Assembly: GCA_046732075.1 (NCBI GenBank)
Contig: JBKPMI010000053.1
Span: 1-48,852, forward strand
DNA from: Acidobacteriota bacterium
GTDB lineage: Bacteria > Acidobacteriota > Thermoanaerobaculia > UBA5066 > Gp7-AA6
Direction: 5' to 3'
DNA length: 48,852 nucleotides
Of the stretch, positions 18,415 through 46,025 are shown in pieces (the stretch's first letter is position 1; the number at the start of each line of letters is the position of its first letter). The notes under the pieces were generated by a model. It worked only from the letters and a program-made list of their open reading frames with translations, searched no databases and was not told the origin of the DNA. The position numbers were made by a program, and so were the translations under genes.

Positions 18415-18467
18415 ACCAAGATTAGGAGAAACCCGTCCGCCCCCGACGCTTTTCAAAGGAGGATTTC

Positions 18468-19961: not shown

Positions 19962-19998
19962 TGGAGTTCCCTTCACGTCTTTGCTTTGGGAGGTACCG

Positions 19999-21492: not shown

Positions 21493-21543
21493 AGCAAATT
21501 CCCGCGAAGCGTGGAACTCTCTTCCGATTTCAGGAGGTGGTGA

Positions 21544-23241: not shown

Positions 23242-25248
23242 CTACTCCGCCAGGCCGGCGCGACGGAGCAACTCCGGAAAGCGGGGATCCCCGCGGAGGG
23301 GGTCGTAAAGCGGATCGACCTTCAACGCCGGATGGACGATCCGCTCCCGGAACAGGTTCTCCAGCAACGCGAGCGCCTTTTCCTTCTCGTTCACGCCGAT
23401 GTAGGCGATCGGAAGCATCACCATCGGGTTCCGTGGCTCGCGGCGTGCGAACTCCTCCAGCCTTTCGAGCGCGCGGCGAGCTTCGGCGTCGCGGCCCTGG
23501 CGCCCGTACACGTAGACTTCGGCTGCCCAGTTCCACGGCCCGTCATCGATCTGGCGCCATTTCTCGATTTCTGCGAGCGCCTCGTCGAACATCTGCTTCT
23601 GCGAGTACGCCCACACGATCGTGTAAGCCCGCGGAAACGCCGCATCTCTCTCGATCACGGCGCGAAATCGTTCGATGGCGCGGTCGTACTGGCGGGCGTA
23701 GTACAGGATCGCACCGTCGTCCGCGGCGATGATCAGCGACAATGGATCGAGCCGGCGCGCGCGATCGCTTTCTTCGAGCGCCTCGCGAAATCGTCCCTGG
23801 AAAGACAGCAGCTCGGCATACCAATGGTGCGCCGTGGCGTAGCTCGGATTCAGCTGGATGGCACGGCGAAACTCTTTCTCGGCGGCCTTCCAATCCCAGT
23901 CATATCTTTCGTGGATCAGCGCGAGGGAGTTGTGGGCCTCGGCCAGACGATCGTCGAGCTCGAGCGCCCGCAGCGCGGCCGAGCGCGCCTTCGGCATGAG
24001 CTCCTTCGCCGATCCCGGGCTGTAGGTGCTCATCAGCGCGTAGGTATCGGCCACGCCGGCGTAAGCCCGTGCGTACGTCGGATCCTTTTCCGCCGCCCGC
24101 TCGAAATGCTCCACGGCCTTCGCGAAGTCCTCCCCCGTCCGCTTGTTCCAGAAGTGGCGGCCCTTGAGATAGAGGTCGTACGCTTCGTACGACTCCGGTG
24201 AAAGCGGCGCTGGATGGCCGTCGATCCGAGTCCCGGGAGCGAGCGTCAGATCGATCTCGTTCGCGACAGCCTGCGCGATCTCCTCCTGGACCGCGAGCAC
24301 GCTCTTCACTTCACGGTCGTACTGCCGGGCCCAGAGATGCGTCCCATCGCGCACCTGAATGAGCTGGGCGCTGATCCGCATCCGGTTTGCTTCACGCCGG
24401 ACACTGCCTTCGAGCAGGTAGTCGATGCGGAGATCCCGGCCGATCTGATCGAGCCGCGCCCGATTGCGTTTGTAGGGCATGACCGATGTGCGCGCGATTA
24501 CCCCGAGCCGCTGGGGGTCGAATGCCCCCAGTCGACTGATCATTTCCTCGGTCAAACCATCGCTGAAGTATTCCTGGGAAGGATCGCCCGTGAGGTTCTC
24601 GAACGGCAGCACCGCCATCATCAACCGTCCGCCGACCGGCGGAGCTTTGCTTCTCTGAAGGTAGATGAGCGGAGCGACGATCAGGAGGAGCCCGAGGCCG
24701 AGCAGGATCGGCCAGCGGCCGGAAACGGGATTGGCGCGGAGGTTTTCGCCTTTCCTCGCGGGGGTCTCCGCCGGTTCGACGGAAGGGGCGGGAACCGCGG
24801 AAGCCGAAGCAGCAGAGGCGGGCGGTGCTTCCTCCACGACCGCCGCGACGAACCGGTAACCCTTTCCGGTGACGGTCTGGATGACCCGGGGCTTCTCCGG
24901 GTCGTCTCGCAACGCCTGCCGGAGCTTGCGGATGGCGCCGTTGATGCTGTTGTCGGTATCCAGAAAGACTTCCCTGCCCCAGACCCGCTCGACGATCTCG
25001 TCCCGGCTGACGAGCTGTCCCTTCCTTTCGACGAGGAGGAGCAGGATTTCCATCGGAATCCGCTCGAGCTTGAGCGGACGTCCCGAGCGGCGCAGCTCGT
25101 AGGCGCGGGGGTCGAGCTCGAAAATCTGCCCGAATCGGAGAGGCCGCGGGATCCTGGCGGGGTCGGGTTCCACGGTGGTCGTCCCCGGCTTCCGGGGAGC
25201 GTGACTGTACATCGGCTCCGAATTCGCGGCAAATCCAAACGGCACCAC
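23242..25248 (-). CDS. membrane-anchored CadC/ToxR-like transcriptional regulator (OmpR/PhoB-type winged helix + TM + TPR), copy 1
   Basis: 668-aa ORF. The N-terminal trans_reg_C-like domain reads ELRRSGRPLKLERIPMEILLLLVERKGQLVSRDEIVERVWG...TVTGKGYRF. A single TM helix (WPILLGLGLLLIVAPLIYL) and the MAVLPFENLTGDP...YFSDGLTEEMISRLG region follow, then multiple TPR-like repeats. Confidence 0.85.
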   Translation of the reverse strand: MVPFGFAANSEPMYSHAPRKPGTTTVEPDPARIPRPLRFGQIFELDPRAYELRRSGRPLKLERIPMEILLLLVERKGQLVSRDEIVERVWGREVFLDTDNSINGAIRKLRQALRDDPEKPRVIQTVTGKGYRFVAAVVEEAPPASAASASAVPAPSVEPAETPARKGENLRANPVSGRWPILLGLGLLLIVAPLIYLQRSKAPPVGGRLMMAVLPFENLTGDPSQEYFSDGLTEEMISRLGAFDPQRLGVIARTSVMPYKRNRARLDQIGRDLRIDYLLEGSVRREANRMRISAQLIQVRDGTHLWARQYDREVKSVLAVQEEIAQAVANEIDLTLAPGTRIDGHPAPLSPESYEAYDLYLKGRHFWNKRTGEDFAKAVEHFERAAEKDPTYARAYAGVADTYALMSTYSPGSAKELMPKARSAALRALELDDRLAEAHNSLALIHERYDWDWKAAEKEFRRAIQLNPSYATAHHWYAELLSFQGRFREALEESDRARRLDPLSLIIAADDGAILYYARQYDRAIERFRAVIERDAAFPRAYTIVWAYSQKQMFDEALAEIEKWRQIDDGPWNWAAEVYVYGRQGRDAEARRALERLEEFARREPRNPMVMLPIAYIGVNEKEKALALLENLFRERIVHPALKVDPLYDPLRGDPRFPELLRRAGLAE

Positions 25249-27254: not shown

Positions 27255-29237
27255 TCAATCCGCCAGGCCGGCGCGGCGGAGAATGTTTTGAAAGCGGGAA
27301 TCTTCGCGGAGGGGATCGTAGAAGGGATCCACCTTCAACGTCGCGATGACGCTCGACCGGTCGCGGAAGAGCTTCTCCAGGGAGTCGAGCGCCTTCTCTT
27401 TCTCGTTCACCCCAATGTAGGCAACGGGAAGCATCGGCATCGGGTCCGCCGGTCGATCCCGGCCCCACCGTTCCAGCCTTTCGAGCGCCTGGCGGGCCTC
27501 GGCGTGCCGGCCCAGGCGTTCGTACACGCAAACTTGAGCCGCCCAGCTCCAGGTCTGGTCCGCGATGCTGCGCCACTTCTCGACCTGCGCCAGAGCCTCC
27601 GAGTACATGCCCTTCTGCAGGTACGGCCAGACCACCATGTTGGCCTTCAGGAAGCGCGGTTCCCTCTCGAGTACCGAGCGGAACTCGTCGATCGCACGAT
27701 CGGGTTGCCCCGCGAAGTACCGGATCGTGGCGTGATCGGTCGAGATGATCAGAGAGAGCGGATCGAGCCGGCTGGCGCGCTCGCTCTCGACGAGGGCTTC
27801 ACGGAACCGTCCCTGGAAGGCCAGGAACTCGGCGTACCAGTGATGGGCCGTCGAATAGTTCGGCCCCAGCTCGATGGCCCGGCGAAACTCTTTCTCGGCG
27901 GACTTCCAGTCCCAATCGAACTGCTCCCGGATGAGCGCGAGGGACGTGTGGGCTTCGGCCAGGCGGTCATCGAGGTCGAGCGCCCGGATGGCCGCCGAGC
28001 GGGCCTTCGGCATGAGCTCCATCGGCGATCCGAGGTCGTAGGTGCTCATCAGAGCGTAGGCGTCCGCCAGGCCCGAATAGGAACGCGCGTACGCGGGATC
28101 CTTTTCCGCGGCCCGCGCGAAGTAAGCCACGGCCCGTTCGAACCCGTCGGCCGTACGCAGGTTCCAGAAGTAGCGGCCCTTCAGATAGAGGTCGTAGGCT
28201 TCGTAGCCTTCAGGTGAGAGGAGCGCGGGAGCGCCGGCCCGATTGCCGGGCTCGAGCGTGAGCTGGATCTGGTCCGCCACGGCCTGCGCAATCTCTTCCT
28301 GGACCGCCACGAGGCTGCTCAACTCGCGGTCGTACTGCCGCGACCAGAGATGGGTCTGATCGCTCATCTGGATGAGCTGGGCGCTGATCCGCACGCGGTC
28401 TGCGTCGCGCCGGACACTCCCTTCCAGCACGTAATCCACGCCCAGCTCACGGCCGATCCGGTCGAGCGAGGGCCGATCCCGGTACTGCATGACCGAGGTC
28501 CGCGCGATGATCGCCAGGCGCTGGGGATCGAGGTTTCCCAATCGGCCGATCATCTCTTCGGTCAGCCCGTCGCTGAAGTAGTCCTGCGCCGGATCGCCGG
28601 TCAGGTTTGCGAAGGGAAGAACCGCCAGCATTCGCCGCCGCCGGAGGAGTCGGGCGCGGGGCTGTTGGAGATAGACCGCACCCGCGATGAGCGCGAGCGC
28701 AAGACCAAGCACGATCAGCCGGTGCCGGGACGAGGGAGATGTTGCGGGGATTCCTGGACCTTCCCCTTGCGGGCGATCTCTCGGCTGAGGCCCGGCCTCG
28801 GAGACAGGAGCCGGGGAATGGGCGATGTCGGAGGCATCCTCCTCGACGGGAGCGATGAACCGGTAGCCTTTGCCGGTGACCGTCTGGATGAAACGCGGCT
28901 TCTCCGGATCGTCCCGCAGGACCAGGCGGAGCTTCCGGATCGCGGTGTTGACACTGTTGTCCACGTCAACGAAAACTTCCGGGCCCCAGACTCTTTCGAC
29001 GATCTGCTCGCGCGTGACGAGCTCTCCCCTCCGTTCGACCAACACGAGGAGCAGTTCCATCGGGATGCGCTCGAGTTTGAGAGCGCGGCCGGAGCGCCGA
29101 AGCTCGTAGGCGCGGAAGTCGAGCTCGAAAACCCGGCCGAATCGGACGGGCCTGGGAATCCCGGCTGGATCGAGTTCCACGGGCAGTTCCCTGGAGCAGG
29201 GAGCGAAACTGTAACCCGGCTCCGGATTCGGGCGCAA
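27255..29237 (-). CDS. membrane-anchored CadC/ToxR-like transcriptional regulator (winged helix + TM + TPR), copy 2
   Basis: 660-aa ORF collinear with 23242..25248 and similar along its whole length, with the same winged helix, single TM helix, LAVLPFANLTGDP...YFSDGLTEEMIGRLG region and TPR region. Confidence 0.85.
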   Translation of the reverse strand: MRPNPEPGYSFAPCSRELPVELDPAGIPRPVRFGRVFELDFRAYELRRSGRALKLERIPMELLLVLVERRGELVTREQIVERVWGPEVFVDVDNSVNTAIRKLRLVLRDDPEKPRFIQTVTGKGYRFIAPVEEDASDIAHSPAPVSEAGPQPRDRPQGEGPGIPATSPSSRHRLIVLGLALALIAGAVYLQQPRARLLRRRRMLAVLPFANLTGDPAQDYFSDGLTEEMIGRLGNLDPQRLAIIARTSVMQYRDRPSLDRIGRELGVDYVLEGSVRRDADRVRISAQLIQMSDQTHLWSRQYDRELSSLVAVQEEIAQAVADQIQLTLEPGNRAGAPALLSPEGYEAYDLYLKGRYFWNLRTADGFERAVAYFARAAEKDPAYARSYSGLADAYALMSTYDLGSPMELMPKARSAAIRALDLDDRLAEAHTSLALIREQFDWDWKSAEKEFRRAIELGPNYSTAHHWYAEFLAFQGRFREALVESERASRLDPLSLIISTDHATIRYFAGQPDRAIDEFRSVLEREPRFLKANMVVWPYLQKGMYSEALAQVEKWRSIADQTWSWAAQVCVYERLGRHAEARQALERLERWGRDRPADPMPMLPVAYIGVNEKEKALDSLEKLFRDRSSVIATLKVDPFYDPLREDSRFQNILRRAGLAD

Positions 29238-30965: not shown

Positions 30966-30987
30966 ACATCCCCCGGGCAACCGGAAA

Positions 30988-31022: not shown

Positions 31023-31045
31023 GAACCAGTGCAGGGAAGGGAGGA

Positions 31046-32710
<1,665 letters not shown>

Positions 32711-33001
32711 TTACTTCTCGACGACCGCGAGAACCTCGTCCTCACGCAGGATCAGGTGCTCTTCGTCGTCGATCTTGATTTCGGTGCCGGCGTACTTGCC
32801 GATGAGGATGCGGTCGCCCTTCTTGACGTCGAGCGGGAACTGCTTGCCGTCCTCGTTGATCTTTCCCTTTCCGACGGCGACGACCTCGGCCTCCATCGGC
32901 TTCTCTTTCGCGGTGTCGGGGATGATGATGCCCCCCTTGCGCGACTCCTTTTCCTCGACCCTCTTGACCAGAATCCGGTCGTAAAGCGGACGAATCTTCA
33001 T
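32711..33001 (-). CDS. groES: co-chaperonin GroES
   Basis: 96-aa [38 protein letters not shown]..., located 21 nt upstream of groEL. Confidence 0.97.
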
Positions 33002-33073
33002 TCCTACTCCTCCTGTCAGGTTCTTCGGATTGCCCCGGAACCCATCTCCGTGACGGGCGAGGCGAGTTGGATA

Positions 33074-33100
33074 TTAGCACTCCTCCTCGACGAGTGCTAG
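33074..33100 (-). promoter_or_regulatory. CIRCE operator (HrcA binding site) upstream of groES
   Basis: TTAGCACTC-CTCCTCGAC-GAGTGCTAG matches the consensus TTAGCACTC-N9-GAGTGCTAA at 17 of 18 arm positions. It lies about 73 nt upstream of the groES start. On the minus strand a TAATAT -10-like hexamer overlaps one arm (33071-33076). Confidence 0.85.
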
Positions 33101-33144
33101 CAGCCGGCGCCGGTTCTCGCCGAATGTCCCCGGGACTATAGAAA

Positions 33145-36082
<2,938 letters not shown>

Positions 36083-36129
36083 CGTTCGCGCTCGGTGACG
36101 TTCGTCACACTTCTCCGCGAAATCGTGCG

Positions 36130-36158
36130 TTGATTCGAGCCTTCCCGAGGTTTACGAT
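36130..36158 (+). promoter_or_regulatory. sigma70-like promoter candidate for paralog 8
   Basis: TTGATT (36130-36135), a 17-nt spacer, then TACGAT (36153-36158). It sits 7 nt upstream of where similarity to the paralog-9 leader begins. An equivalently placed TTGCGT-N17-TAGCAT precedes paralog 9. Confidence 0.45.
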
Positions 36159-36165
36159 CGGCCCA

Positions 36166-36361
36166 ATTCCGGCGGCCTGCGGACCTTGGAGGAGGAGGCG
36201 GCCATCGATTCCGTGGCAAGTGGTGTACGGGATGCGGTCTTAACCGCAATGGCGCACCCCTGTTCACCCCCACACACAACCGGATCGAAAGGAGGCGGGA
36301 AACCCAGACTTTCGTCGCTCGTCGTCAGAAGCCTTCGAAAGCCTTAAAGGAGGGAATCGAA
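36166..36361 (+). ncRNA. conserved long 5' leader of paralog 8 (candidate cis-regulatory RNA)
   Basis: The first ~65 nt (ATTCCGGCGGCCTGCGGACC...GGAGGAGGCGGCCATCGATTCCGT.GCAA.TGGTGTAC) are nearly identical to 38138 onward. A hairpin lies at 36233-36248, and a second conserved box CAACCGGATCGAAAGGAGGCGGGA lies at 36277-36300. A 1-nt indel and non-codon-like substitutions argue against coding. Confidence 0.45.
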
Positions 36362-37945
36362 ATGAAGTTCTCGAAACAACTCGGTTTCGGAATCACTCTC
36401 CTGCTTCTCGCCTCCGGTTTCGGCCTTGCCCAGAACATTCCCCTGAACAACTGGACCGTTCCGCCCTACGCGCAGTCGTCGCACAGCGGCGGCATCACGA
36501 CTATGACCGACGTGACGTCTCCCCGGGCATTCGTCGGCGTTCAGCCCTGCCGCGTCGCCGATACCCGTGGAAATGGCGCGCCCATCCAGGGCGGGATCTT
36601 CCCCAACAGCGGCCTGCGCACATGGGACGTCACCGGCATCTGCGGGATCCCCGCCGGCGCCGATGCGATCTCGGTGAACTTCACCGTCGTTGCGGCCGCC
36701 GGAATCCCGGCCGGCTCGTTCCTGCTGGCCTGGCCGACTGGCCAGGCGCCCCCGCCCACCGCGATCATGACTTATGGGCCGGGTCAGGTCATTTCGAACG
36801 CGGCGATCGTGCCGCTCGGCCCGGGTGAGCAGCTGAACGTCAACGTCAGCGGAAGCACCCACGTGATCATGGACGTCAACGGCTATTTCTCCGACAGGCT
36901 GCAGGATCCGACCCACTTTCTGGAGATTGACAACAACTCCACCGGGTACACGATTCGTATCGACAACGCATCCACATCCTGCAACGGCGCCTGCGGGCTG
37001 AGAGCGACCACGGCGAGCGGCTGGGCCGTCTCGGGTTACTCTCCGACTGACGTCGGTGTGAGGGGCGATTCAGACAGCTATAACGGCGTGTGGGCGCAGG
37101 CGACGAACTGGGACGCGCTCGCGGCCTTCGGCGGGCGAGACGGCGGCTATCTCCAGGGCGCGCGGCACGGGGCCATCGGCACGTCGACCAATACAACCGA
37201 TGCCGTATACGGCGTCATCGGAAGCGGTGTCTCCGCCAACGTCTTTTCGGCAGGCGTCTCCGGTCAGGTCAACCACGCGGCCGCGAATGCGGCTCGGTTC
37301 ATCAACAGCGGTCTTTCCAACGCGGACGTCTATGTCGGGACCAATTCCGGCGGCGTCGAATATGGTGTCCTGGCGCCCAACCTCAGGCTCCAAGCCGGTT
37401 CGCTCGTCATCACGGGGGCCACGAAGAACTTCGCGGCGCCTCACCCCGAAGACCCTTCGAAGGAGATCAAGTACGCCTCCGTTGAAGCTCCGACGGTGGA
37501 CGTCTATTTCCGGGGAACCGCGGAGCTCGTCAACGGAATCGCGCGGATCGCGATCCCGGATCACTTTCGTTTCACGGCGCGGGAAGGGACCTACATGACG
37601 ACGCTGACGCCAGTCGGTCGATCGGTTACCCTGAGCGTCGATCAGGAAGGTCCTGACGGAATCGTTGTTCGCGGCTCAGGAACCACTCGATTCCACTATG
37701 TCGTTTTCGCCGAGCGTGCCGAAATAGAAGGCTTCGAGCCCGTCCAGCGAAACGAAAGCTTCACTCCCGAAATGCTCGAAAGAGGTGGCGGTCCTCAGCA
37801 CCTTCCGGCACCGACGAGAGCACTTCTCGTGCGGAACGGGACCCTGAATCCCGACGGCACGTATAACCTCGAAACGGCGCGCGCCCTGGGCTGGACGATT
37901 CCCGAGCGTCCGACAGTGGCTCCGGCGCCCATTCCGAACCCCTGA
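36362..37945 (+). CDS. secreted tripartite paralog 8 (type-A C-module)
   Basis: ATG follows AAAGGAGGG. The signal peptide is MKFSKQLGFGITLLLLASGFGLAQN. It has N-module NWTVPPYAQSSHSGGITTMTD...QPCRVADTRGNGAPIQGGIF. The C-module KNFAAPHPEDPSKEIKYASVEAPTVDVYFRGTAELVNG...REGTYMTTLTPVG is closest to paralog 1. Confidence 0.9.
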   Translation: MKFSKQLGFGITLLLLASGFGLAQNIPLNNWTVPPYAQSSHSGGITTMTDVTSPRAFVGVQPCRVADTRGNGAPIQGGIFPNSGLRTWDVTGICGIPAGADAISVNFTVVAAAGIPAGSFLLAWPTGQAPPPTAIMTYGPGQVISNAAIVPLGPGEQLNVNVSGSTHVIMDVNGYFSDRLQDPTHFLEIDNNSTGYTIRIDNASTSCNGACGLRATTASGWAVSGYSPTDVGVRGDSDSYNGVWAQATNWDALAAFGGRDGGYLQGARHGAIGTSTNTTDAVYGVIGSGVSANVFSAGVSGQVNHAAANAARFINSGLSNADVYVGTNSGGVEYGVLAPNLRLQAGSLVITGATKNFAAPHPEDPSKEIKYASVEAPTVDVYFRGTAELVNGIARIAIPDHFRFTAREGTYMTTLTPVGRSVTLSVDQEGPDGIVVRGSGTTRFHYVVFAERAEIEGFEPVQRNESFTPEMLERGGGPQHLPAPTRALLVRNGTLNPDGTYNLETARALGWTIPERPTVAPAPIPNP

Positions 37946-37968
37946 TCTTCTCTTGACGACTCGGTTTG

Positions 37969-37997
37969 GGCCGCGGCGACGCCGCGGCCTTTTTTTT
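37969..37997 (+). terminator. rho-independent terminator (hairpin family 2)
   Basis: GGCCGCGGC-GAC-GCCGCGGCC followed by TTTTTTTT. Confidence 0.85.
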
Positions 37998-38102
37998 GGC
38001 GAGCCGAAGATCTTCCAGCCGCGGCGTTCGTCTCGGCTTCGCCCGGAATTTACAGAACGCCTGTGATACCAGTCACAGCGCCTTCTCACACCTTGGAATT
38101 CG

Positions 38103-38131
38103 TTGCGTTTGCACCAGGCCGGCGCTAGCAT
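38103..38131 (+). promoter_or_regulatory. sigma70-like promoter candidate for paralog 9
   Basis: TTGCGT (38103-38108), a 17-nt spacer, then TAGCAT (38126-38131). The conserved leader begins 7 nt downstream, the same geometry as at 36130-36166. Confidence 0.45.
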
Positions 38132-38137
38132 TTCTCC

Positions 38138-38328
38138 ATTCCGGCGGCCTGCGGACCTGGGGGAGGAGGCGGCCATCGATTCCGTCGCAACTGGTGTACC
38201 GGGCGCGGTCTTGCCCGCGGGGGCGGCAGCTTGCTCTATCCCTGACATTTCAACCGGATCGAAAGGAGGCGGGACACGACAATTGCTCTCGCGGTAAGAA
38301 CTTGGAGAGGTCTAAAGGAGGTACTCGG
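38138..38328 (+). ncRNA. conserved long 5' leader of paralog 9 (candidate cis-regulatory RNA)
   Basis: Homologous to 36166-36361. It has a hairpin CGCGG-TCTTGC-CCGCG at 38204-38219 and the conserved box CAACCGGATCGAAAGGAGGCGGGA at 38251-38274. Confidence 0.45.
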
Positions 38329-39879
38329 ATGAAGTCTCCCAAATGGATCGGATTCGGGATCGTTCTGCTGCTTCTCGTCTCAGGCGTCCTCGTCGCTCAG
38401 GACATACCGCTCAACAACTGGACCGTTCCGCCTTACACGCAGTCGTCGCACAGCGGCGGCATCACGACGATGACCGACGTCACAACCGCTCATCCGTTCG
38501 TCGGCGTTGCGCCCTGCCGCGTCGCCGATACCCGTGGCAATGGCGCTCCGATCCAAGGCGGCATTTTTGCCAACAGCGCCGAGCGCACGTGGGATCTCAC
38601 CGGAATCTGCGGAATTCCCGCGGGCGCGGAGGCGATCTCGGTGAACTTCACCGTCGTCGCCGCGGCCGGGATCCCGGCCGGCTCCTTCCTGCTCTCCTGG
38701 CCCACCGGAGGATCACCCCCGCCGACGGCGATCATGACCTACGGCCCGAACCAGGTTCTCTCGAACGCGGCGATCATCGTGCTCGGCCCGGGCGAGCAGG
38801 TCGAGATCAACGTCAGCGGAAGCACGCACATCATCATGGACGTCAACGGCTATTGGGCTCCGATCGCGGCTGCCGCGAACAACGCCCTCGTCTGGGAGAC
38901 GAGCAATACGGGCACGTTCGGAGCGGCGCGGATCCGCAACCTCGGAACTGGCCCGAACGTGCACGGCGTGACGGCGTTCACGGACTCGGTCGGCGCGGGT
39001 TCCGCCGGTCTGTTCGGACAAGCGACGGCGACGACGGCCACCGAAGTCTACGGGGTTCGGGGCCTCTCAGCCAGCAGCGGCGGGGACACGGCCGGCGTTT
39101 TCGGAGTCGCAGATTTCCGACCCGACGACAACTCTACTTGGAGCAAGGCCGGCGTCCGAGGGGAGAGCGCCGAGGGCTTTGGAGTGTTCGGCATCAGCGA
39201 GTACAGCGCGGTGCGGGGTCTCCTGACCGCGAATACAACCGGTGTCGGCCTCGCCAACGGCTACCTCGGTAACTCCTTCGGCGTCGACCCGAGTGGCGGC
39301 GGTGCCCCATGGGCGGTGTTCGGGCTCGGGGACATCGGGGCGAGCGGGACGAAGTTCTTCGTGGAACCCCACCCCACCGACGCCTCGCTCGTAATCAAAT
39401 ACGCCACGCTCGAAGGGCCCGAGGTGGGGACCTATTTCCGCGGCCGTGCGAAGTTCGATCGTGGCACGGCGACGATCTCCGTGCCCGAAACTTTCCGGAT
39501 GGTGACTTCCGAGGAAGGGCTGAGCATCCAGGTGACACCGATCGGGGAAATGGCCACGGTTGCGGTCGTGCAGCTCAGCCTCGACAAGATCGTCGTCAAG
39601 GGATCTCGCAACGTGGAGTTCTTCTACACGGTCAACGGCGTCCGCCGGGGCTTCGAGCAGATGCAGGTTCTCGCGCACGACTTCATGTTCGTGCCCGATT
39701 CGAAGGACGCGCCGATTCCGGCATGGTTGAGTTCCCATGAGAGACAGAGTCTCATCTCAAACGGAACGTACACGCCCGATGGCAAGGTCAACGCAGAGAC
39801 CGCGCAGCGCCTCGGATGGGATCGGATCTGGGAAGCTCGGGCTCATCCGCAACCTCGCCCGGAACCCAGCACGCCCTGA
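38329..39879 (+). CDS. secreted tripartite paralog 9 (type-B C-module)
   Basis: ATG at 38329 follows AAAGGAGG and lies in frame within the 37966..39879 ORF, giving MKSPKWIGFGIVLLLLVSGVLVAQD. It has N-module NWTVPPYTQSSHSGGITTMTD...APCRVADTRGNGAPIQGGIF and C-module KFFVEPHPTDASLVIKYATLEGPEVGTYFRGRAKFDRG. Confidence 0.9.
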   Translation: MKSPKWIGFGIVLLLLVSGVLVAQDIPLNNWTVPPYTQSSHSGGITTMTDVTTAHPFVGVAPCRVADTRGNGAPIQGGIFANSAERTWDLTGICGIPAGAEAISVNFTVVAAAGIPAGSFLLSWPTGGSPPPTAIMTYGPNQVLSNAAIIVLGPGEQVEINVSGSTHIIMDVNGYWAPIAAAANNALVWETSNTGTFGAARIRNLGTGPNVHGVTAFTDSVGAGSAGLFGQATATTATEVYGVRGLSASSGGDTAGVFGVADFRPDDNSTWSKAGVRGESAEGFGVFGISEYSAVRGLLTANTTGVGLANGYLGNSFGVDPSGGGAPWAVFGLGDIGASGTKFFVEPHPTDASLVIKYATLEGPEVGTYFRGRAKFDRGTATISVPETFRMVTSEEGLSIQVTPIGEMATVAVVQLSLDKIVVKGSRNVEFFYTVNGVRRGFEQMQVLAHDFMFVPDSKDAPIPAWLSSHERQSLISNGTYTPDGKVNAETAQRLGWDRIWEARAHPQPRPEPSTP

Positions 39880-39903
39880 CCAGGTGGATCTCTGAATCTC
39901 GAA

Positions 39904-39932
39904 GGCCGCGGCGGGCGCCGCGGCCTTTTTTT
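39904..39932 (+). terminator. rho-independent terminator (hairpin family 2)
   Basis: GGCCGCGGC-GGGC-GCCGCGGCC followed by TTTTTTT. The stem arms are the same as at 37969. Confidence 0.85.
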
Positions 39933-39983
39933 GCCGCGCAATCTCTTGAACCGTCGCTCCTGCTCCGTTATCGTGTTTCCGGC

Positions 39984-41546
39984 TTGAACGTTTTCCCTCT
40001 GGCGCGCCGGTGCCCGGGGAGGGTCGTCGGCGCGCGGCGGGCTCTCCTCGGATTTCTCGGAGGTCTGCTCTTCCTCTCCGGGCAGGCTCCGGCGGCCACC
40101 TACTCGGTCGCGCGGTTCTCCGACACGCCGATCGTCTCGGGTCTCTCTTCCCCCACCGACCTCGCGTTCCTGCCGGACGGACGGATCCTCATCCTGGAGA
40201 AGGCGGGCCGCGTCCGGATCGTCGTGAACGGAGTGCTGCAGGCAACTCCGGCCCTCGACATCACCGGGATCGTGGACGACTTTTCGGAGAGGGGCCTGCT
40301 CGGGATCTGCCTCCACCCGAACTTCGCAGCGACCGGCTGGATCTACCTGTACTACACGACGAACGCCCCCCGGAACCAGATCTCGCGCTTCACGCTGACC
40401 GGGAACACGATCAGCGCTGCGAGCGAATTGCCCATCCTCCAGGACATCGAGGCGACCAACGGCAACCACAACGGCGGCACGATTGCGATCGGGCCGGATG
40501 GAAAACTCTGGGCCGCGCCGGGAGACTCCGGGACCGGAGGGGCCAAAGCCCAGGATCTCGCGGCGGCAAGCCCGAGCCGGTTCAACGGGAAGGTCCTGCG
40601 GATGGAGCTCGACGGCTCCCCCGCGGCCGGCAACCCGTTTCTCGGGGACGCAACCAAGGAGCCTCGGATCTGGGCGTACGGGTTTCGGAATCCGTTTCGA
40701 TTCTCGTTCCGCCCGAATGGTTCGCTCTACGTGGGCGACGTCGGCCAGTCGACCCGGGAAGAGCTCGACGTCGTCACGGCCGGCGGCAACTACGGCTGGC
40801 CCTATATGGAAGGCTTCATCCAGCAGCCGGGTGGTCCGGGGCCGTGTCCCGTGACGACGACCTGCCTTCCGCCGGTCTTCGACTACATCCGTTCGGTCGG
40901 GACCACGATCATCGGCGGCGTCTTCGTGACCGGCAACGCCTACCCCACTCTTACGGGCCGGTACGTCTTCGGCGACAACGGCTCGAGCTGGATCAAGTGG
41001 CTGGAGTTCGACGGGAACGACGCGTTGATCGGGACGCCGCCGACGGCGCCTTCTCCGGCCCTTCACGACCTGGCGACGGCGGCGTCGGGCCCCGTCGCTT
41101 TCCACCCGGCGCCCGACGGGAACCTCTACTACATCGGGATCAACACCGGAACCGTCTATCGCATCGACTACGCGCGGGATTTCTTCACCGTCACGCCCTG
41201 CCGCGTCTTCGACACGCGGGACCCCGCGGGACCGTGGGGAGGGCCGAGCCTCATCGGGGGCCAGGATCGCACGTTCGCGATCGCCGGCCGCTGCGGTATT
41301 CCGTCGACGGCGCGCGCCGTCTCGGTCAACGTGACCGTGACCGGCCCGACCGCGCCCGGCTTCCTGACGCTCTTCCCGGCCGGCGGGCCGCCGCCGCTCG
41401 CGAGCACGATCAACTTCCGCGCGGGTCAGACCCGCGCGAACAACGCGGTCGTGACCCTCGGCGGGGCGGGGGACATCGTCGTCCGGGCAGGCATGGCCTC
41501 CGGGAACGTCCACGTGATCCTGGACGTCAACGGCTACTTCGACTGA
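39984..41546 (+). CDS. secreted PQQ-dependent sugar dehydrogenase-like beta-propeller with C-terminal CRxDTR module
   Basis: In frame with the 39816..41546 ORF. The likely start is the TTG at 39984 (uncertain), ahead of a signal-like ARRALLGFLGGLLFLSGQAPAA. GSDH-family motifs are present (GLLGICLHPNF, NHNGGTIAIGPDGKLW, GFRNPFRFSF, GGNYGWP). The last ~121 aa (41181-41543) read FFTVTPCRVFDTRDPAGPWGG...RCGIPSTARAVSVNVTVT...LTLFPAG...INFRAGQTRANN...ILDVNGYFD, then the stop. Confidence 0.8.
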   Translation: MNVFPLARRCPGRVVGARRALLGFLGGLLFLSGQAPAATYSVARFSDTPIVSGLSSPTDLAFLPDGRILILEKAGRVRIVVNGVLQATPALDITGIVDDFSERGLLGICLHPNFAATGWIYLYYTTNAPRNQISRFTLTGNTISAASELPILQDIEATNGNHNGGTIAIGPDGKLWAAPGDSGTGGAKAQDLAAASPSRFNGKVLRMELDGSPAAGNPFLGDATKEPRIWAYGFRNPFRFSFRPNGSLYVGDVGQSTREELDVVTAGGNYGWPYMEGFIQQPGGPGPCPVTTTCLPPVFDYIRSVGTTIIGGVFVTGNAYPTLTGRYVFGDNGSSWIKWLEFDGNDALIGTPPTAPSPALHDLATAASGPVAFHPAPDGNLYYIGINTGTVYRIDYARDFFTVTPCRVFDTRDPAGPWGGPSLIGGQDRTFAIAGRCGIPSTARAVSVNVTVTGPTAPGFLTLFPAGGPPPLASTINFRAGQTRANNAVVTLGGAGDIVVRAGMASGNVHVILDVNGYFD

Positions 41547-41775
41547 CGCTTTTTCTGGACTCTCGGCCCCTACTGGGTTAGCTTCGGAGCCGACTCAAGT
41601 CTGTCAATCGGAACCGGGAGTGCTGACAAATCACGGCCGCGGGCCGGAGATTTGCTCGACCAAGCTACTTTCTATCAATGGGTTGCTCATTTTCCGGGGT
41701 GGCGCGGAAGTTGCCTTTCTTTCCCCCTGAATCCAATCCGGTTTATCCACTTTCGGGGTACTCGAGGAGAGGCAT

Positions 41776-43512
41776 GTGAAGTCACTGGCCGCGCTCATCG
41801 CCCTTGCCGGGGCGCTGCCGCTTTCCGCCGCTTCCCTGCCGAGCCCGCTGCGCTACTTCACCCACCCCGGCATCGCGGTCGAGCGCGCGGCGGCCGCCGG
41901 CGAGCGTCTACTCGACCTCGACCCGCGTGGCCTGGCTCGTCTCCGGCAGATTCCCGACCGCGAGGCCTTGACGCTCGAGAACTTTCCCTTTGCGCCGGGT
42001 GCGACCGGGAACCTCATCCTGGAGCGTTTCGAGATCGTCTCCCCGGACGGCCGGCTGATCGTCGAGGGACCCGACGGTGAGACGTCGCGGCCGCTTGCCC
42101 GCGGCATCCACTTCGAGGGTCACCTCGAGGGGGAGCCGGACTCCCGCGTCTACGTCGGCGTGCCGGGTGATTTTCTGGTGGCTGTCCTCCAGACGAGCGC
42201 CGGGCTCGTTTACGTGGGGCCGGACGGCCCGACGGAGGGACCGATCCAGCACGTCGTCCGGCGTTCCGACTCGCTCCGCTCGGTCGAACTCGCGCCGCTC
42301 GACTGGCACTGCGACGCCGACGACCTGACTCCTCCGCCGATCGAACGCTCGGGCCCGGGTCTGCGAGCGGAAACCGTGGCGGCCGTGTCCCGGCCGGCGG
42401 CGGCCTCCCTGTCCGCGCTCGCCGCGACGACGCTGAAAGACGCCGCGATCTCGATCGAGACCGACCAGGAGCTCCTGGCGAAGTTCCCCGGCGGCCTCGA
42501 CGCCATGACCTCCTACATCACGACGCTGATGGCGCAGAACTCGGTCATCTACCAGCGCGACCTCGGTGTCCACCTGACGGTCAACCGGATCCAGGCCTGG
42601 ACGTCGACCGACCCGTACGTCAAGACCGACACGCGCGGCCAGCTCGACGAGGTCGGCGACTGGTGGCATGCCAATCGGCCGAAGAGCTCCTATCCGCGAA
42701 CGGTCGTCACCTTTCTGAGCGGAAAATCCGTGACCGGCGGAATTGCGTGGCTGGACGTGCTCTGCGCCAACGACTTCTCCCAGAGCAATCACTGGGGAGG
42801 CGGGTACGGCGTGGTCCAGATCAACACGAGCTGGCCCTCCAACCTGTGGGACCTGCTGGCGACCGCCCACGAGCTGGGACACAACTTCGGTTCTCCCCAC
42901 ACGCATTGCTACAGCCCGCCGATCGACATGTGCTACTCGGGCGAGAGCGGTTGCTACAGCGGGACGGTGGTGAACCCCGGGCCGCTCGGCGGCACGATCA
43001 TGAGCTACTGTCACCTGCTCGTGGGGGGCTACGGGAACATCGACATGCGGTTCCATCAACGGTGCATAACCGAGCAGATGCTGCCCGAGATCAACGCCGT
43101 CGCCTGCCTGACCGACATGGCCGCGCCGGCGCCGGTCGCGACGAAGTTCTACACGGTCACCCCGTGCCGCGTGGCCGACACGCGCAACCCGACCGGACCC
43201 TACGGTGGACCGGCGATAGCCGCCAACTCGGACCGGACGTTCGCCGTCGGAGGACAGTGCGGGGTTCCCACGACCGCCACGGCCGTTTCGTTGAACGTCA
43301 GCGTCACCCAGCCGAGCGCGCTCGGATACCTCCGGCTCTACGCGGGCGGGACCTCCCTGCCGAACGCGACCGCGATCAACTACCGCGCGGGGCAAACCCG
43401 CGCCAACAACGGATTTGCGCCTCTGGGGACGGCCGGGACTCTGGCCGTCCACTGCGATCAGCCTTCCGGAAACGTGCAGGTTATAATCGATGTTAACGGC
43501 TATTTTCAGTAG
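41776..43512 (+). CDS. secreted reprolysin/M12B-like zinc metalloprotease with C-terminal CRxDTR module
   Basis: GTG start follows GAGGAGAGG. The signal peptide is MKSLAALIALAGALPLSAAS and the zinc site is TAHELGHNFGSPH (HExxHxxGxxH). The C-terminal module at 43147-43509 reads FYTVTPCRVADTRNPTGPYGG...QCGVPTTATAVSLNVSVT...INYRAGQTRANN...IIDVNGYFQ, then the stop. Confidence 0.85.
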   Translation: MKSLAALIALAGALPLSAASLPSPLRYFTHPGIAVERAAAAGERLLDLDPRGLARLRQIPDREALTLENFPFAPGATGNLILERFEIVSPDGRLIVEGPDGETSRPLARGIHFEGHLEGEPDSRVYVGVPGDFLVAVLQTSAGLVYVGPDGPTEGPIQHVVRRSDSLRSVELAPLDWHCDADDLTPPPIERSGPGLRAETVAAVSRPAAASLSALAATTLKDAAISIETDQELLAKFPGGLDAMTSYITTLMAQNSVIYQRDLGVHLTVNRIQAWTSTDPYVKTDTRGQLDEVGDWWHANRPKSSYPRTVVTFLSGKSVTGGIAWLDVLCANDFSQSNHWGGGYGVVQINTSWPSNLWDLLATAHELGHNFGSPHTHCYSPPIDMCYSGESGCYSGTVVNPGPLGGTIMSYCHLLVGGYGNIDMRFHQRCITEQMLPEINAVACLTDMAAPAPVATKFYTVTPCRVADTRNPTGPYGGPAIAANSDRTFAVGGQCGVPTTATAVSLNVSVTQPSALGYLRLYAGGTSLPNATAINYRAGQTRANNGFAPLGTAGTLAVHCDQPSGNVQVIIDVNGYFQ

Positions 43513-43524
43513 GATTAGGAGACC

Positions 43525-44016
43525 ATGATGAACAGATCTCAGTTGGTTCGCTTTTCGTTCCTCTTCGCCGCGGCGACCTTTTTGACGGTCTCCGCAGCCC
43601 GAGCCGTTGGACCGCTGCAGTTCTACTCCGTCACGCCGTGCCGCATCGCCGACACGCGCGCCGCCGTCGGAGTGAACGGGGGACCGATCCTTTCGCACGG
43701 CGTGATCCGCAACTTCGCCGTCTACACGACCCCCGCGAACTGCGGCTTGCCCGCGGACGGCACGGTCAAGGCCGTCACGCTGAATGTGACCGTCGTCAAC
43801 CCGACCAGCCTGGGCCACCTGACGGTCTTCCCGTACAACACGACGGTTCCGGTCGTTTCGACCATCAACTACGCAGCGGGCGAGCCGGCTCTCGGAAACG
43901 GCGCCATCGTTCCGGTGACGAACGATCCGAACTTCCAGATCTCCGTCCTCCCGGTCCTGGTCGGAACCGGCAACACGGTGCACGCGATCATCGACATCAC
44001 GGGTTACTTCAAGTAA
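43525..44016 (+). CDS. stand-alone secreted CRxDTR-module protein
   Basis: 163-aa ORF 12 nt after the protease stop, with an AGGAG ribosome-binding site. The signal peptide is MMNRSQLVRFSFLFAAATFLTVSAARA. A single module follows at 43621-44013: FYSVTPCRIADTRAAVGVNGG...NCGLPADGTVKAVTLNVTVV...LTVFPYN...INYAAGEPALGN...IIDITGYFK, then the stop. Confidence 0.85.
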   Translation: MMNRSQLVRFSFLFAAATFLTVSAARAVGPLQFYSVTPCRIADTRAAVGVNGGPILSHGVIRNFAVYTTPANCGLPADGTVKAVTLNVTVVNPTSLGHLTVFPYNTTVPVVSTINYAAGEPALGNGAIVPVTNDPNFQISVLPVLVGTGNTVHAIIDITGYFK

Positions 44017-44061
44017 TCGAAATCCGGAAACCGGCGATCGGCAAAACTCGTTGACGGAAGC

Positions 44062-44094
44062 GACGGAGGCGATTTCGCCGCCGTCGTTTCTCTC
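44062..44094 (+). terminator. possible rho-independent terminator after the protease/stand-alone-module pair
   Basis: Imperfect hairpin GACGGAGGCG-ATTT-CGCCGCCGTC (one A/G mismatch) followed by GTTTCTCTC. Confidence 0.35.
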
Positions 44095-44189
44095 GTCCGT
44101 CGCGGAATCCGCGAGGGACCCGTTCTCCCGGCCGATCGCCGTCTCCGAGTGGCCATGACCCGAACAACGGACGCGATTCGAAAGGCCGC

Positions 44190-46025
44190 ATGAGGAGAAA
44201 TCCGCTCCTTCCTGCGCTTCTCCTGCTGGCGACGCTCCCCGCCGCCGCCCGGGCGGCGCTGAACACGCCCCCTCTCCGAGCGGGTTGGCCCGTGGCACTG
44301 GCCGGCGCCGGAACCGTCCGCGTGAGCCAGCCGGCGGTGGGAGACCTCGACAACGACGGCGTGAAGGAGATCGTGGTCGGCACGGTGAATCGGAAGGTCT
44401 ACGCCCTCCGGGCCAACGGAACGGTCATGCCGGGCTGGCCCGTCACCGTGAGCGCCGAAGTGAACTCGAGCCCCGCGCTCGCAGACATCGATGGCGACGG
44501 ATTCCTCGACGTCGTGGTGGCCTGCGGGTCGAATTTCGATTCCACAGGGAACGGGCGGCTCTACGTCTTCCGGCGCGACGGAACCCTCATCTGGTCGTTC
44601 ACGCCGGTCGACGAAAACGGCGACGGACATCCGGAGGGGATCTACTCGACGCCCGCCATCGGGGACATCGATGGCGACGGGGACAACGAGATCGTTTTCG
44701 GATGCTGGGACTTCCGGGTTTACGTCCTGCGCAAGGACGGTACGCCGATGCCCGGTTTCCCGCCGAATCCGTCCGGCCTCGGACACGGGATCCGCGACAC
44801 GATCTGGTCCTCGCCCGCGCTCGCCGACCTCGACGGCGACGGAAAGCTCGAGGTCATCATCGGGGCGGACACGCACGCGGAGGGCCCGCCGATCAACACG
44901 CCGGACGGCGGCGCGATCCACGTCTTCCGCTGGAACGGGACGGAACTGCCGGGTTTCCCGCAGTACGTGAACCAGACGATCGTGTCGTCGCCGGCGGTGG
45001 GCGACATCGACGGCGATGGATACCTCGACATCGTCGTGGGGGGCGGCATCTACTACCCGGGCGCGGTCGGCCACCAAGTCTACGCGTGGAAGCGGGACGG
45101 GACGTTCGTTCCGGGCTGGCCGGTCACGACGACCGGCCAGGTCCTCGCCTCTCCGACTCTCGCGGACCTGACGGGCGACGGAAAACCCGAGGTGATCGTC
45201 GGCGACCAGCCGGAGGGGACGGCCGGCCCCTACCTCTACGCGTTCCGGGGAAACGGAACGCAGCTCTTCAAGATGCAGCCGAAGAGCTATTTCGGAACGA
45301 GCCCGAACGTCGGAGATCCGATCGTGGCCGACGTGACCGGCGACGGCCAGGTCGAAATCCTGGTGGCCGTCAACACTGAGATCGCGGTGATCGATCGGAC
45401 CGGCGTGCAACTCACCGACCCGGGCCCTCCCGGGAACGATCCCCGCCCGACCTATTACACGGAGACCGCAGTTTCCGGGGTGGTCGTCACGGACCTCGAC
45501 CACGACGGAGTTCTCGACGTCATCGCCGCGTCCGGTACCCCGTTCCCGTCTCCGACCGCCGCCGCGGTCTACGTCTGGAACCCGGCCGCGGTCGGACCGG
45601 CTCCGTGGCCCGCGTTTCGCGGCGACCCGCAGCAGCGGCGCGGCTACGAGGGGGCGATCATCGGTGCGGGCACGCGATTCTTCACGTTGACTCCGTGCCG
45701 GCTCTTCGACACGCGGGGCGGCTCCTCGCTCAAGGCCGGCGGCATGGCGGTCGCCGGAGTCGCGGCGCGATGCGGAGTTCCCCCGGGCGCCGAGGCGGTC
45801 GCCCTGAACGTCACGATCGTCCTCCCCGGAACTGCCGGCAACCTCCGCCTCTTCCCGGACGGGATTCCGACGCCGCTTTCGTCCACGATCAACTTCCGCG
45901 CGGGCCAGGTCCGCGCGAACAACGCGGTGCTCGCGCTCTCCCCCTTCGGGAACCTGCGCATCTTCTGCGACATCCCGACGGGATTCGCGGACGTGATCCT
46001 GGACGTCACCGGATACTTCCAGTAA
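44190..46025 (+). CDS. secreted FG-GAP/VCBS-repeat (integrin-alpha-like beta-propeller) protein with C-terminal CRxDTR module
   Basis: 611-aa ORF with signal peptide MRRNPLLPALLLLATLPAAARA. It has eight DxDGDG-type repeats (GDLDNDGVKEIVVG, ADIDGDGFLDVVVA, GDIDGDGDNEIVFG, ADLDGDGKLEVIIG, GDIDGDGYLDIVVG, ADLTGDGKPEVIVG, ADVTGDGQVEILVA, TDLDHDGVLDVIAA). The C-terminal module at 45678-46022 reads FFTLTPCRLFDTRGG...RCGVPPGAEAVALNVTIV...LRLFPDG...INFRAGQVRANN...ILDVTGYFQ, then the stop. Confidence 0.88.
   Translation: MRRNPLLPALLLLATLPAAARAALNTPPLRAGWPVALAGAGTVRVSQPAVGDLDNDGVKEIVVGTVNRKVYALRANGTVMPGWPVTVSAEVNSSPALADIDGDGFLDVVVACGSNFDSTGNGRLYVFRRDGTLIWSFTPVDENGDGHPEGIYSTPAIGDIDGDGDNEIVFGCWDFRVYVLRKDGTPMPGFPPNPSGLGHGIRDTIWSSPALADLDGDGKLEVIIGADTHAEGPPINTPDGGAIHVFRWNGTELPGFPQYVNQTIVSSPAVGDIDGDGYLDIVVGGGIYYPGAVGHQVYAWKRDGTFVPGWPVTTTGQVLASPTLADLTGDGKPEVIVGDQPEGTAGPYLYAFRGNGTQLFKMQPKSYFGTSPNVGDPIVADVTGDGQVEILVAVNTEIAVIDRTGVQLTDPGPPGNDPRPTYYTETAVSGVVVTDLDHDGVLDVIAASGTPFPSPTAAAVYVWNPAAVGPAPWPAFRGDPQQRRGYEGAIIGAGTRFFTLTPCRLFDTRGGSSLKAGGMAVAGVAARCGVPPGAEAVALNVTIVLPGTAGNLRLFPDGIPTPLSSTINFRAGQVRANNAVLALSPFGNLRIFCDIPTGFADVILDVTGYFQ

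Follow-up and report, generated by a model that had tools for sequence, protein, structure and literature searches.

The window analysed here, 48,852 nucleotides (nt) of GC-rich (64-72%), Thermoanaerobaculia-like chromosomal DNA (contig JBKPMI010000053.1), encodes nine full-length paralogs, p1 to p9, of a large, undescribed family of predicted Sec-exported proteins with signal-peptide-like leaders. The N-terminal, middle and C-terminal modules of these proteins have different histories. We put the probability at about 0.8 that the nine genes are patchworks, in which N-, middle and C-modules of different lineages have been joined repeatedly by homologous recombination. The initial annotation of the region had proposed recombination or cassette exchange between paralogs; recombination is upheld by the present analysis, while cassette exchange applies only in an evolutionary or population sense, and the donors need not have been paralogs of the same genome.

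The modules of the nine paralogs have different histories

The paralogs were found by an open reading frame (ORF) search with LLAWPTG-like motifs, and their start codons were picked by ribosome-binding site and leader alignment. The proteins measure 493 to 581 amino acids (aa), and each of the nine copies is full-length, with its own ribosome-binding site and signal peptide. Their alignment resolves four parts: a hydrophobic, signal-peptide-like leader, with Ala-Gln invariant at its end; a conserved N-module (about 155 aa) in which two Cys never vary; a variable, Gly/Ala/Ser-rich middle module of 139 to 237 aa with 3 to 14 G[VILA]xG motifs; and a C-module of about 172 aa. In p8 (36362-37945, plus strand; 527 aa), these parts correspond to the signal peptide at 36362-36430, the N-module at 36431-36889, the middle module at 36890-37420 and a type-A C-module at 37421-37942. 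In p9 (38329-39879, plus strand; 516 aa), they occupy 38329-38397, 38398-38856, 38857-39348 and 39349-39876, the last being a type-B C-module. The mechanical ORF of p9 begins at 37966, and ATG 38329 is its likely start because of the ribosome-binding site AAAGGAGG found there and the alignment with the p8 leader.

The motifs by which the N-modules had been sorted in the initial annotation recur exactly as quoted, namely VVAAAGIPAGSFLL in p2, p8 and p9, VVS.AATPQGAFLL in p4, p5 and p6, and the variant SAPATPQGGFLL in p3, with distinct segments in p1 (SPAGTPLGA) and p7 (PTVAAPSGA). The SSHSGG insertion, which adds one residue, is indeed restricted to p8 and p9 among the nine paralogs. The assignment of the C-modules to two types also stands for these genes: p8 carries type A like p1, to which it is 77% identical (aa), as against 39% between p8 and p9, and the B-type C-modules of p2, p4, p5, p6, p7 and p9 share 55-73% mutual identity. 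The N-module of p8 is 84% identical to that of p1 and likewise 84% identical to that of p9, and the aa identity among all paralogs ranges from 65 to 84% for N-modules and from 33 to 77% for C-modules.

Several pairings of these types are thereby found in the window. Paralog p1 (6899..5391, minus strand; 502 aa) combines its own N subtype with a type-A C-module and is the nearest relative of the p8 middle and C-modules. An N-module of the p8/p9 type is joined to a B-type C-module in p2 (16933-18414, plus strand), and the N type common to p4, p5 and p6 occurs with a B-type C-module in p4 (19999-21492, plus strand), p5 (21544-23172, plus strand) and p6 (25443-27188, plus strand; 581 aa); among the middle modules, that of p6 is the longest (237 aa, 14 G[VILA]xG motifs). 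Finally, p7 (29352-30965, plus strand; 537 aa) joins its own N subtype to a B-type C-module close to that of p5.

Neighbour-joining (NJ) trees of the separate modules disagree. The N-modules group p3, p4, p5 and p6 with 100% bootstrap support, p8 and p9 with 99% (nt), and p2, p8 and p9 with 84-92%, while the C-modules group p1 with p8 and p1 with p3 and p8, each at 100%. These N and C splits are pairwise incompatible, so that no single tree fits both modules; proper alignment did not make the two trees congruent, the splits remaining incompatible at 99-100% bootstrap. At third codon positions only, p8 and p9 are still joined at 83% in the N-module, and p1 with p8 at 66% and the B group at 68% in the C-module, and this persistence of the conflict speaks against protein-level convergence.

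Breakpoint tests likewise gave a recombination signal. The pairwise homoplasy index (PHI) was significant over the joined N- and C-modules (z=-9.2, p<=0.001) and within the N-module (p=0.011), which is itself internally mosaic, with p=0.47 within the C-module. In MaxChi-type triplet tests against p8/p4 and p8/p7, p9 switches from p8-like to B-like at alignment columns 192-209, right after DVNGYF, i.e., at the junction of N-module and middle module (p<=0.0005). A switch of p8 from p9-like to p1-like lies near alignment column 131 (p<=0.0005). In NJ trees and a sliding window, the middle and C-modules of p8 group with p1 and its N-module with p9. Breakpoints of p2 and p7 are also significant (p<=0.0005), and that of p3 is not.

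For p3 (18468-19961, plus strand), the initial annotation had described a C-module mixing A and B signatures, a claim that did not hold: no breakpoint was found by the MaxChi-type test (p=0.15-0.8), and the PHI value within the C-modules gives no support either. The diagnostic residues of this module are interleaved (11 of type A, 8 of type B, 13 of neither), and it is 42-49% identical to that of every other paralog. The same type is conserved elsewhere, in P0016, P0017, P0019, P0020, P0022, P0035 and P0038 and in the contig L004 (79% and 85% in the L004 genes). Given the lack of a breakpoint signal, the interleaved diagnostic sites and this conservation, an origin of p3 as an A/B recombinant was rejected; p3 carries a third conserved C-type rather than a hybrid.

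The surroundings of p8 and p9 bear on the same question. Of the features that these two genes had been said to share, the leader, the upstream sequence and the hairpin are indeed held in common, whereas no sigma-70-like site supports a shared promoter, and the stem core of the hairpin also occurs in p1. Leader identity is about 66% between p8 and p9 vs. 16% between p8 and p1. The homologous upstream regions (36131..36361 for p8 and 38098..38328 for p9, both plus strand) have about 230 nt in common at 71-87% identity, and each holds an exact 23-nt element, AACCGGATCGAAAGGAGGCGGGA, with a Shine-Dalgarno-like GGAGG. This element, which could serve as a leader or regulatory element, lies at 36278-36300 (62 nt upstream of the p8 start) and 38252-38274 (55 nt upstream of the p9 start), its only two occurrences in the window. 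An Rfam search of the whole window returned no match, and the shared element is therefore not a known RNA; as a sigma-70 promoter scan of 35900-40100 found no site either, the "shared promoter" comes down to shared upstream sequence only.

Downstream, a hairpin GGCCGCGGCG...CGCCGCGGCC followed by a T-run stands after both genes, with the same stem core in p1. The terminator-like hairpin of p8 (37968..37990, plus strand) reads GGGCCGCGGCG-ACG-CCGCGGCCT and is followed by T8. That of p9 (39904..39925, plus strand) reads GGCCGCGGCG-GG-CGCCGCGGCC followed by T7, and is thus of the p1/p8 kind despite the B-type C-module of p9; it was read from the sequence, the terminator scan having missed it because its loop has only 2 nt. 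The B-type paralogs p5, p6 and p7 have a hairpin AAAGCCCCGGCTCGCGCCGGGGCTTT in common, which differs from the stem of p1, p8 and p9, and terminator type thus does not follow C-module type in p9. Because of the shared upstream sequence and the p1/p8-type stem, p9 looks like a p8-type duplicate with a replaced interior, or the converse may apply to p8. The hairpin regions of p5, p6 and p7 lie at about 23175-23310, 27190-27330 and 30970-31020, and the downstream similarity of p5 and p6 runs on into the 3' ends of convergent regulator genes.

Module combinations in related contigs and across the family

A comparison of the locus between relatives, which the initial annotation had suggested, found differing module combinations at the same place. 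Other module sets occupy the p8/p9 (gmd-GSDH) locus in contigs whose flanks match the window at 88-90% identity; none of the genome contigs scanned was near enough to belong to the same species, the best being the metagenome-assembled genome (MAG) MFD09206.bin.1.14 with flanks of 79-85% nt identity. In three contigs (L001-L003), an ortholog of p8 (90% nt) is followed, in the position of p9, by a gene just 54% identical (aa) to p9. In this second gene, the leader is of the p8 type, the segment before LLAWPTG (STAATPQGAFLLAWPTGSPP) is of the p4/5/6 type, and the C-module is B-type and p7-like; in L001, that C-module is 69% identical to that of p7. The leader of the L001 gene is 84-88% identical to that of the neighbouring p8 ortholog vs. 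73-76% to that of its positional counterpart p9, while the far upstream region shows the reverse, a contrast that is the signature of a local conversion patch. From a comparison of L001 and L079 with window positions 33143-38010, it was also observed that the p8 ortholog of L001 (90.3% nt) is more conserved than the adjoining TPR and GDP-mannose dehydratase genes (83.9% over 2972 nt), the next gene being wholly replaced.

Other contigs illustrate joins at different points. The gene of L078 is 85-100% identical to p8 per 60-nt window from the 5' untranslated region through codon ~270 (window position ~37150), after which identity drops abruptly to 25-56% and a B-type C-module follows, the B-type part being about 70% identical (nt) to p6; the next gene of this contig has a p8-like N-module and a p3-type C-module. 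L079 lacks p9 and has a single gene, in which the p8 N-module (90% nt) and an A-type C-module (74%) enclose a middle module that differs. A 97% ortholog of p9 in L074 is directly preceded by a gene ending in a B-type C-module.

The p2 to p7 array can be compared with L004, which is syntenic with the window on both sides of the array (L004:5-6877 with 9888-16767, 79%; L004:13730-18447 with 30986-35722, 85%) and has four family genes where the window has p2 to p7 and two regulators. Intact orthologs of p3 (N-, middle and C-module 81, 69 and 79% aa) and p4 (78, 59 and 82%) are retained, and the other two genes are mosaics, one of them with a p1/p8-like N-module and a p3-type middle and C-module (85%). 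Since L004 keeps the p3 and p4 combinations and yet holds other mosaics, some combinations are old and stable while others turn over.

The combinatorial diversification that had been proposed is borne out in the family at large. More than 800 homologs were retrieved with p8 and more than 1290 with p9 as query, all of them annotated as hypothetical and the named ones from Thermoanaerobaculia or Acidobacteriota MAGs. Among 152 full-length proteins, identities of N- and C-modules are nearly uncorrelated (Spearman rho 0.11). An N-module identity of at least 85% is accompanied by a C-module identity of at most 45% in 83 of 258 pairs, and the opposite discordance (C at least 85%, N at most 50%) is found in 20 of 76; furthermore, all four combinations occur, in violation of the four-gamete rule, for 25 pairs of N-cluster and C-cluster. 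The C-types observed are few, about 3-5, and conservation within each is 55-85%.

According to block profiles, N-, middle and C-modules are each replaced independently: p8 and P0016 switch near aa 180, p8 and P0005 have kept their N- and C-modules in common and not the middle, and p1 and P0037 share middle and C-modules with N-modules of different class. The assorting modules are thus three (N, middle and C) rather than two. Change-points of identity cluster at p8 residues 165-209 and 330-369, and do so also in the 64 pairs similar only on the C side, which were used because they are free of the slow evolution of the N-module. The corresponding histogram of pairs similar on the N side, being confounded by that slow evolution, was discounted.

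Routes of exchange and alternative explanations

The exchanges may have come about by gene conversion, by unequal crossing-over among copies in tandem or dispersed, and by the replacement of alleles from one strain to another. From the breakpoint positions we infer a preference for two conserved junctions, ...STHVIMDVNGYF between N-module and middle module and K-x-F-x-x-PHP-x-D between middle module and C-module, with further joins inside the N-module and inside the middle module. The conserved junction motifs are the only stretches long enough for homologous pairing and may have acted as crossover sites. In the window, p8 and p9 are a tandem pair with a common upstream region, leader and N-module, of which p8 follows the p1 lineage (type A) past the N/middle junction and p9 the B lineage. 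The exchanges are evolutionary events of differing ages, whose outcome is a combinatorial repertoire varying between related strains. They are old and do not represent programmed switching, because exact runs do not exceed 36 nt and silent cassettes are lacking: a tblastn search of the window with all modules returned nothing beyond the nine complete genes and an N-like domain in each of four other genes.

Several points weigh against this interpretation or limit its reach. The longest exact run between any two paralogs is 36 nt, and the long runs all lie on conserved N-module motifs, STHVIMDVNGYF included; between 26 and 63% of the codons for an identical amino acid differ synonymously between paralogs. 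There is accordingly no recent conversion tract, and exchange now under way inside the genome is unproven. The donors may have been paralogs of the same genome or may have come from other strains. The tests consist of NJ bootstraps and self-written PHI and MaxChi routines rather than maximum-likelihood topology tests, GARD or RDP. The use of p8 and p9 as queries biases the family samples, and slow N-module evolution and poor alignment of the middle module partly confound the clustering of change-points seen at the N/middle junction. As to structure, the AlphaFold2 (AF2) monomer prediction of these 493-581 aa proteins gives the middle module low confidence (predicted local distance difference test, pLDDT, 42-70), the fold matches in the PDB are weak (best E 1.4e-4), and function, surface location and trimer formation of the family are inferred only. 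Synonymous differences were also observed to be lower in N-modules (0.26-0.47) than in C-modules (0.30-0.63) for most pairs, e.g., 0.32 vs. 0.45 for p1 and p8, which could stem from partial homogenisation of the N-modules or from constraint at the nucleotide level.

A single gene tree without recombination would have to attribute the conflict to unequal rates, with fast C-modules in p1 and p8, or to convergent selection on the segment before LLAWPTG. Although the N-modules are far more conserved (65-84% aa) than the C-modules (33-77%), and near-saturation of synonymous sites weakens the tree signal, rate differences cannot yield mutually incompatible splits each at 99-100%. Moreover, the conflict is still seen at third codon positions, compatibility is higher between neighbouring sites than between remote ones (PHI z=-9.2), all four combinations of N-type and C-type occur in the family, and L078 falls from 90% to below 50% nt identity within one gene where the p8 ortholog of L001 stays at about 90% throughout, which together make this explanation barely credible. 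Misjoining of metagenomic contigs across repeated paralogs deserves almost no weight. The window and all its relatives are apparently metagenome assemblies and the family is multi-copy, but exact repeats of at most 36 nt are too short to mislead assemblers, the structure of p8 recurs in three independent samples (L001-L003) and p9 at 97% in L074, the clusters with p1 and p2 comprise 32 and 36 member sequences, and reading frames and module order are intact in all copies.

The hypervariability of the p8/p9 locus among strains with 88-90% identical flanks, the many copies within one region and the conserved junction motifs as possible exchange points might also suggest variation programmed within the lifetime of a lineage, by switching of cassettes into an expression site or driven by a recombinase or a diversity-generating retroelement (DGR). 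We hold this to be highly unlikely, since all nine copies are complete and have a ribosome-binding site and signal peptide of their own, no truncated or promoterless cassettes occur in the window, no tracts are near-identical (maximum 36 nt), and Pfam scans of 20 neighbouring ORFs detected no recombinase, invertase, transposase or reverse transcriptase; the combinations of p3 and p4, in addition, are stable between genomes with flanks only 79% identical. A possibility of a different order, and one that deserves to be kept in view even if we would not favour it, is that the mosaics owe their origin chiefly to alleles replaced laterally, across strains or species, through homologous recombination of incoming DNA at conserved flanks or junctions, same-genome exchange being minor. 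Different alleles at the p8/p9 locus in contigs with conserved flanks are in line with it, no replaced segment closely copies a paralog of the window (the C-module of the second L001 gene is 69% identical to p7, the B-type part of L078 about 70% (nt) to p6), and recent intragenomic conversion tracts are lacking. Against it, the leader of the second L001 gene is nearer to the neighbouring p8 ortholog than to p9, fitting local conversion, the upstream region, leader and N-module common to p8 and p9 are what a tandem duplication would leave, and a regulator-plus-paralog unit appears to have been duplicated in place. Lateral replacement and intragenomic exchange are not exclusive of each other.

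Predicted folds, known systems and gene neighbourhood

Sequence searches of Pfam, NCBIfam and PDB with whole paralogs, a family profile and the N-domain returned no match. With an alignment of 115 sequences, AF2 reached a mean pLDDT of 78, with a confident N-terminal beta-sandwich (pLDDT>90) and, in the C-domain, confident beta structure and helices; the three modules would fold separately, the N-module probably as a jelly roll. A model of the N-domain only (pLDDT 87; 94-98 in the beta-sandwich across residues 31-153) was more informative than the whole protein, for which Foldseek found only weak jelly-roll matches in the PDB. Its best PDB match is the C-terminal beta-sandwich tip of Bdellovibrio Bd2133 (8ond/8ok3, E 1.4e-4 to 7.8e-4, TM score 0.66 on the target), followed by jelly rolls of CBM, Ena and BclA type; Foldseek matches of the N-module to CBM22, CBM4 and CBM6 are weak (E 2.6e-3 to 9e-3, TM 0.31-0.44). 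In the C-module, residues 5-110 (the first ~105) match PHROGs 17490 and 28536 (E down to 5.6e-13) and, by tblastn, the C-terminal ends of phage tail proteins (27-35% identity, E down to 1e-12), among them the minor tail protein gp19 of Arthrobacter phage Mufasa8, a "tail fiber-like protein" of Flavobacterium phage immuto and proteins of many cyanophages. Fold matches in BFVD are to tail-fibre, minor-tail and collagen-repeat proteins (E down to 9e-10). These resemblances, together with the signal peptides, suggest that the proteins are extracellular and fibre- or adhesin-like. By analogy with phage tail fibres and with the Bdellovibrio fibres discussed below, the conserved N end could then be used to present or bind, and recognition could fall to the distal modules, which are exchangeable.

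The N-module is not confined to the paralogs. Four consecutive genes downstream of p9 (39816..46025, plus strand) end in N-module-like domains with 30-41% identity to the paralog N-modules: a GSDH-type beta-propeller protein (39816-41546), a reprolysin-type metalloprotease (41776-43512), a 163-aa protein consisting of the N-like domain alone (43525-44016) and an FG-GAP repeat protein (44190-46025), all on the plus strand. The occurrence of N-like domains in other extracellular proteins marks the N-module as a mobile extracellular beta-sandwich, which has no Pfam model and seems to be reused outside the cell as a tag or for binding. In Bryobacterales MAGs (L036:9914-13336 and L056:4703-14434), proteins of about 1000-1140 aa were observed with three tandem N-like domains, which adjoin He_PIG/Ig, fn3, beta-propeller (SBBP) or DUF7948 domains; L056 has three such genes in a row.

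Among described systems, the mosaic adhesive trimer (MAT) fibres of Bdellovibrio bacteriovorus are the closest analogue. Members of this superfamily undergo "tip swapping", with Bd2133 and Bd1334 sharing 75% identity as far as the tip (Caulton et al., 2024, PMC10769870). Both families are chromosomal, multi-copy, exported and related to phage tail fibres, their terminal domains fold independently, one end is conserved and the other exchanged among members, and the best PDB matches of the N-module model are to the Bd2133 tip itself. Nevertheless, with the family profile or the p8 N-domain as query, no MAT chain was found at E<=1 or E<=10 among all PDB chain sequences (8OND, 8OK3, 8ONC, 8OML and 8OL4 included). 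The proteins are also shorter (493-581 aa vs. about 1000 aa for the long trimeric beta-helix or beta-prism fibres of the MAT kind), no Pfam match to an S74 domain was obtained (Peptidase_S74 included, E<=1), the C-module instead resembling uncharacterised phage tail-protein ends, and the Bd2133-like sandwich stands at the N end and at the C end of unrelated enzymes of the window. Three modules assort here and not the tip alone, and trimers, surface display and any part in recognising prey or ligands are putative for the acidobacterial family. To our knowledge, the host acidobacterium, unlike Bdellovibrio, has no predatory habit.

Tail fibres of T-even phages and of P2 are mosaic. Domain-level shuffling has also been documented for phage receptor-binding proteins (PMC10684548). 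The likeness extends to the homology of the C-module with C-terminal parts of phage minor tail and tail fibre-like proteins, and to a conserved proximal part with exchangeable distal parts and recombination at conserved linkers. The acidobacterial proteins differ in having signal peptides, and in being encoded among envelope, polysaccharide and housekeeping genes (GroESL, PBP1, UvrA) rather than within a phage structural module.

Tandem paralogs of secreted proteins are likewise reshuffled in the lipoprotein cluster of Staphylococcus aureus, where the unit runs from the 3' part of one ORF across the spacer into the 5' part of the ORF that follows (PMC2568036). In both cases, recombination at conserved regions reshuffles gene halves, and copy number varies between related genomes (here, p2 to p7 vs. 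four genes in L004). The protein families are, however, unrelated, and the unit is not conserved here, the gene before p9 ending in type A in the window and in B-type in L074.

Polymorphic toxins such as Rhs and contact-dependent inhibition (CDI) proteins, which undergo C-terminal cassette displacement (PMC3482391), share the principle of a conserved N-terminal part with C-terminal modules exchanged via recombination. They differ in that no orphan C-terminal cassettes were found in the window by tblastn, no small immunity-like genes follow the paralogs (the gaps of 37-53 nt between p2 and p5 leave no room for them), and the C-module, of which there are only about 3-5 types, matches no toxin family and resembles the ends of tail fibres. 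Antigenic-variation systems of the pilE/pilS or vlsE kind have silent truncated donor cassettes and near-identical tracts, neither of which is present here (maximum 36 nt), and DGRs have a reverse transcriptase, of which there is none in the 20 neighbour ORFs, and a near-identical repeat pair, also lacking. Polymorphic toxins, antigenic-variation cassettes and DGRs were thus excluded on their defining features. No literature was found that links Thermoanaerobaculia with the term tail fiber. The behaviour described here is a known evolutionary one, of which the undescribed family is a new example.

Mosaic multi-copy surface and fibre families, including phage tail fibres, MAT fibres and adhesins, are a known route to recognition diversity, and the present family exemplifies it cleanly, with support at the population level, in an acidobacterial class that is uncultured and little studied. 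Its three defined module boundaries would allow new domain families to be built where neither Pfam nor NCBIfam has a model. The C-module matches tie a bacterial secreted family to phage tail-protein ends that are themselves uncharacterised (PHROGs 17490 and 28536). Should the proteins be surface fibres, the strain-to-strain exchange of modules at the gmd-GSDH locus would point to an interface for recognition or interaction on which diversifying pressure acts in Acidobacteriota of soils and sediments. A more far-reaching proposal, which we regard as speculative and rather improbable, is that of an acidobacterial counterpart to the MAT fibres: an exported-fibre repertoire of Thermoanaerobaculia derived from phage tail fibres or sharing ancestry with them, with binding or anchor, stalk and tip modules reassorted between strains, the N-module used as a tag, and regulators of its own. 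If true, the hypervariable locus would alter what the cell recognises or adheres to, be it prey, partners, polymers or phage decoys, the jelly-roll module would also tag secreted enzymes for targeting (GSDH, metalloprotease, FG-GAP), and individual copies might have their own divergent ToxR/CadC-like TPR regulators.

Two such regulators, both with Trans_reg_C and TPR domains, are encoded on the minus strand at 23242..25248, divergent from p6, and at 27255..29237, divergent from p7. They are ToxR/CadC-like paralogs with 66% identity, so that regulator and family gene appear to have been duplicated as a unit. Both were observed to be missing from the syntenic MAG contig L004, and a third TPR protein is encoded at 33145-35079 (minus strand). 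The tandem array of p2, p3, p4 and p5 (16933..23172, plus strand) has intergenic gaps of 37-53 nt and a single terminator, after p5.

Domains identified in the 20 neighbouring ORFs include ABC ATPase, thioredoxin-like, UvrA-like, PBP1, Wzy_C, glycosyltransferases, GroES/EL, GDP-mannose dehydratase, TPR regulators and PMT_2, and no phage or tailocin structural genes were found among these ORFs. Base composition varies along the window, with a GC content of 70-74% over the first 16 kb (the region of polysaccharide, PBP and UvrA genes) and 63-67% across the paralog arrays, rising again past 40 kb. Envelope and glycan genes at 9432-15959 and 46006-47628 surround the arrays. The glycan genes of the window encode an O-antigen-ligase-like Wzy_C protein, GT2 and GT4 glycosyltransferases, a Bac_transf sugar transferase, a GDP-mannose 4,6-dehydratase (35105-36082) and a PMT_2 mannosyltransferase-like protein, and it is conceivable that the family proteins are glycosylated or anchored to polysaccharide.

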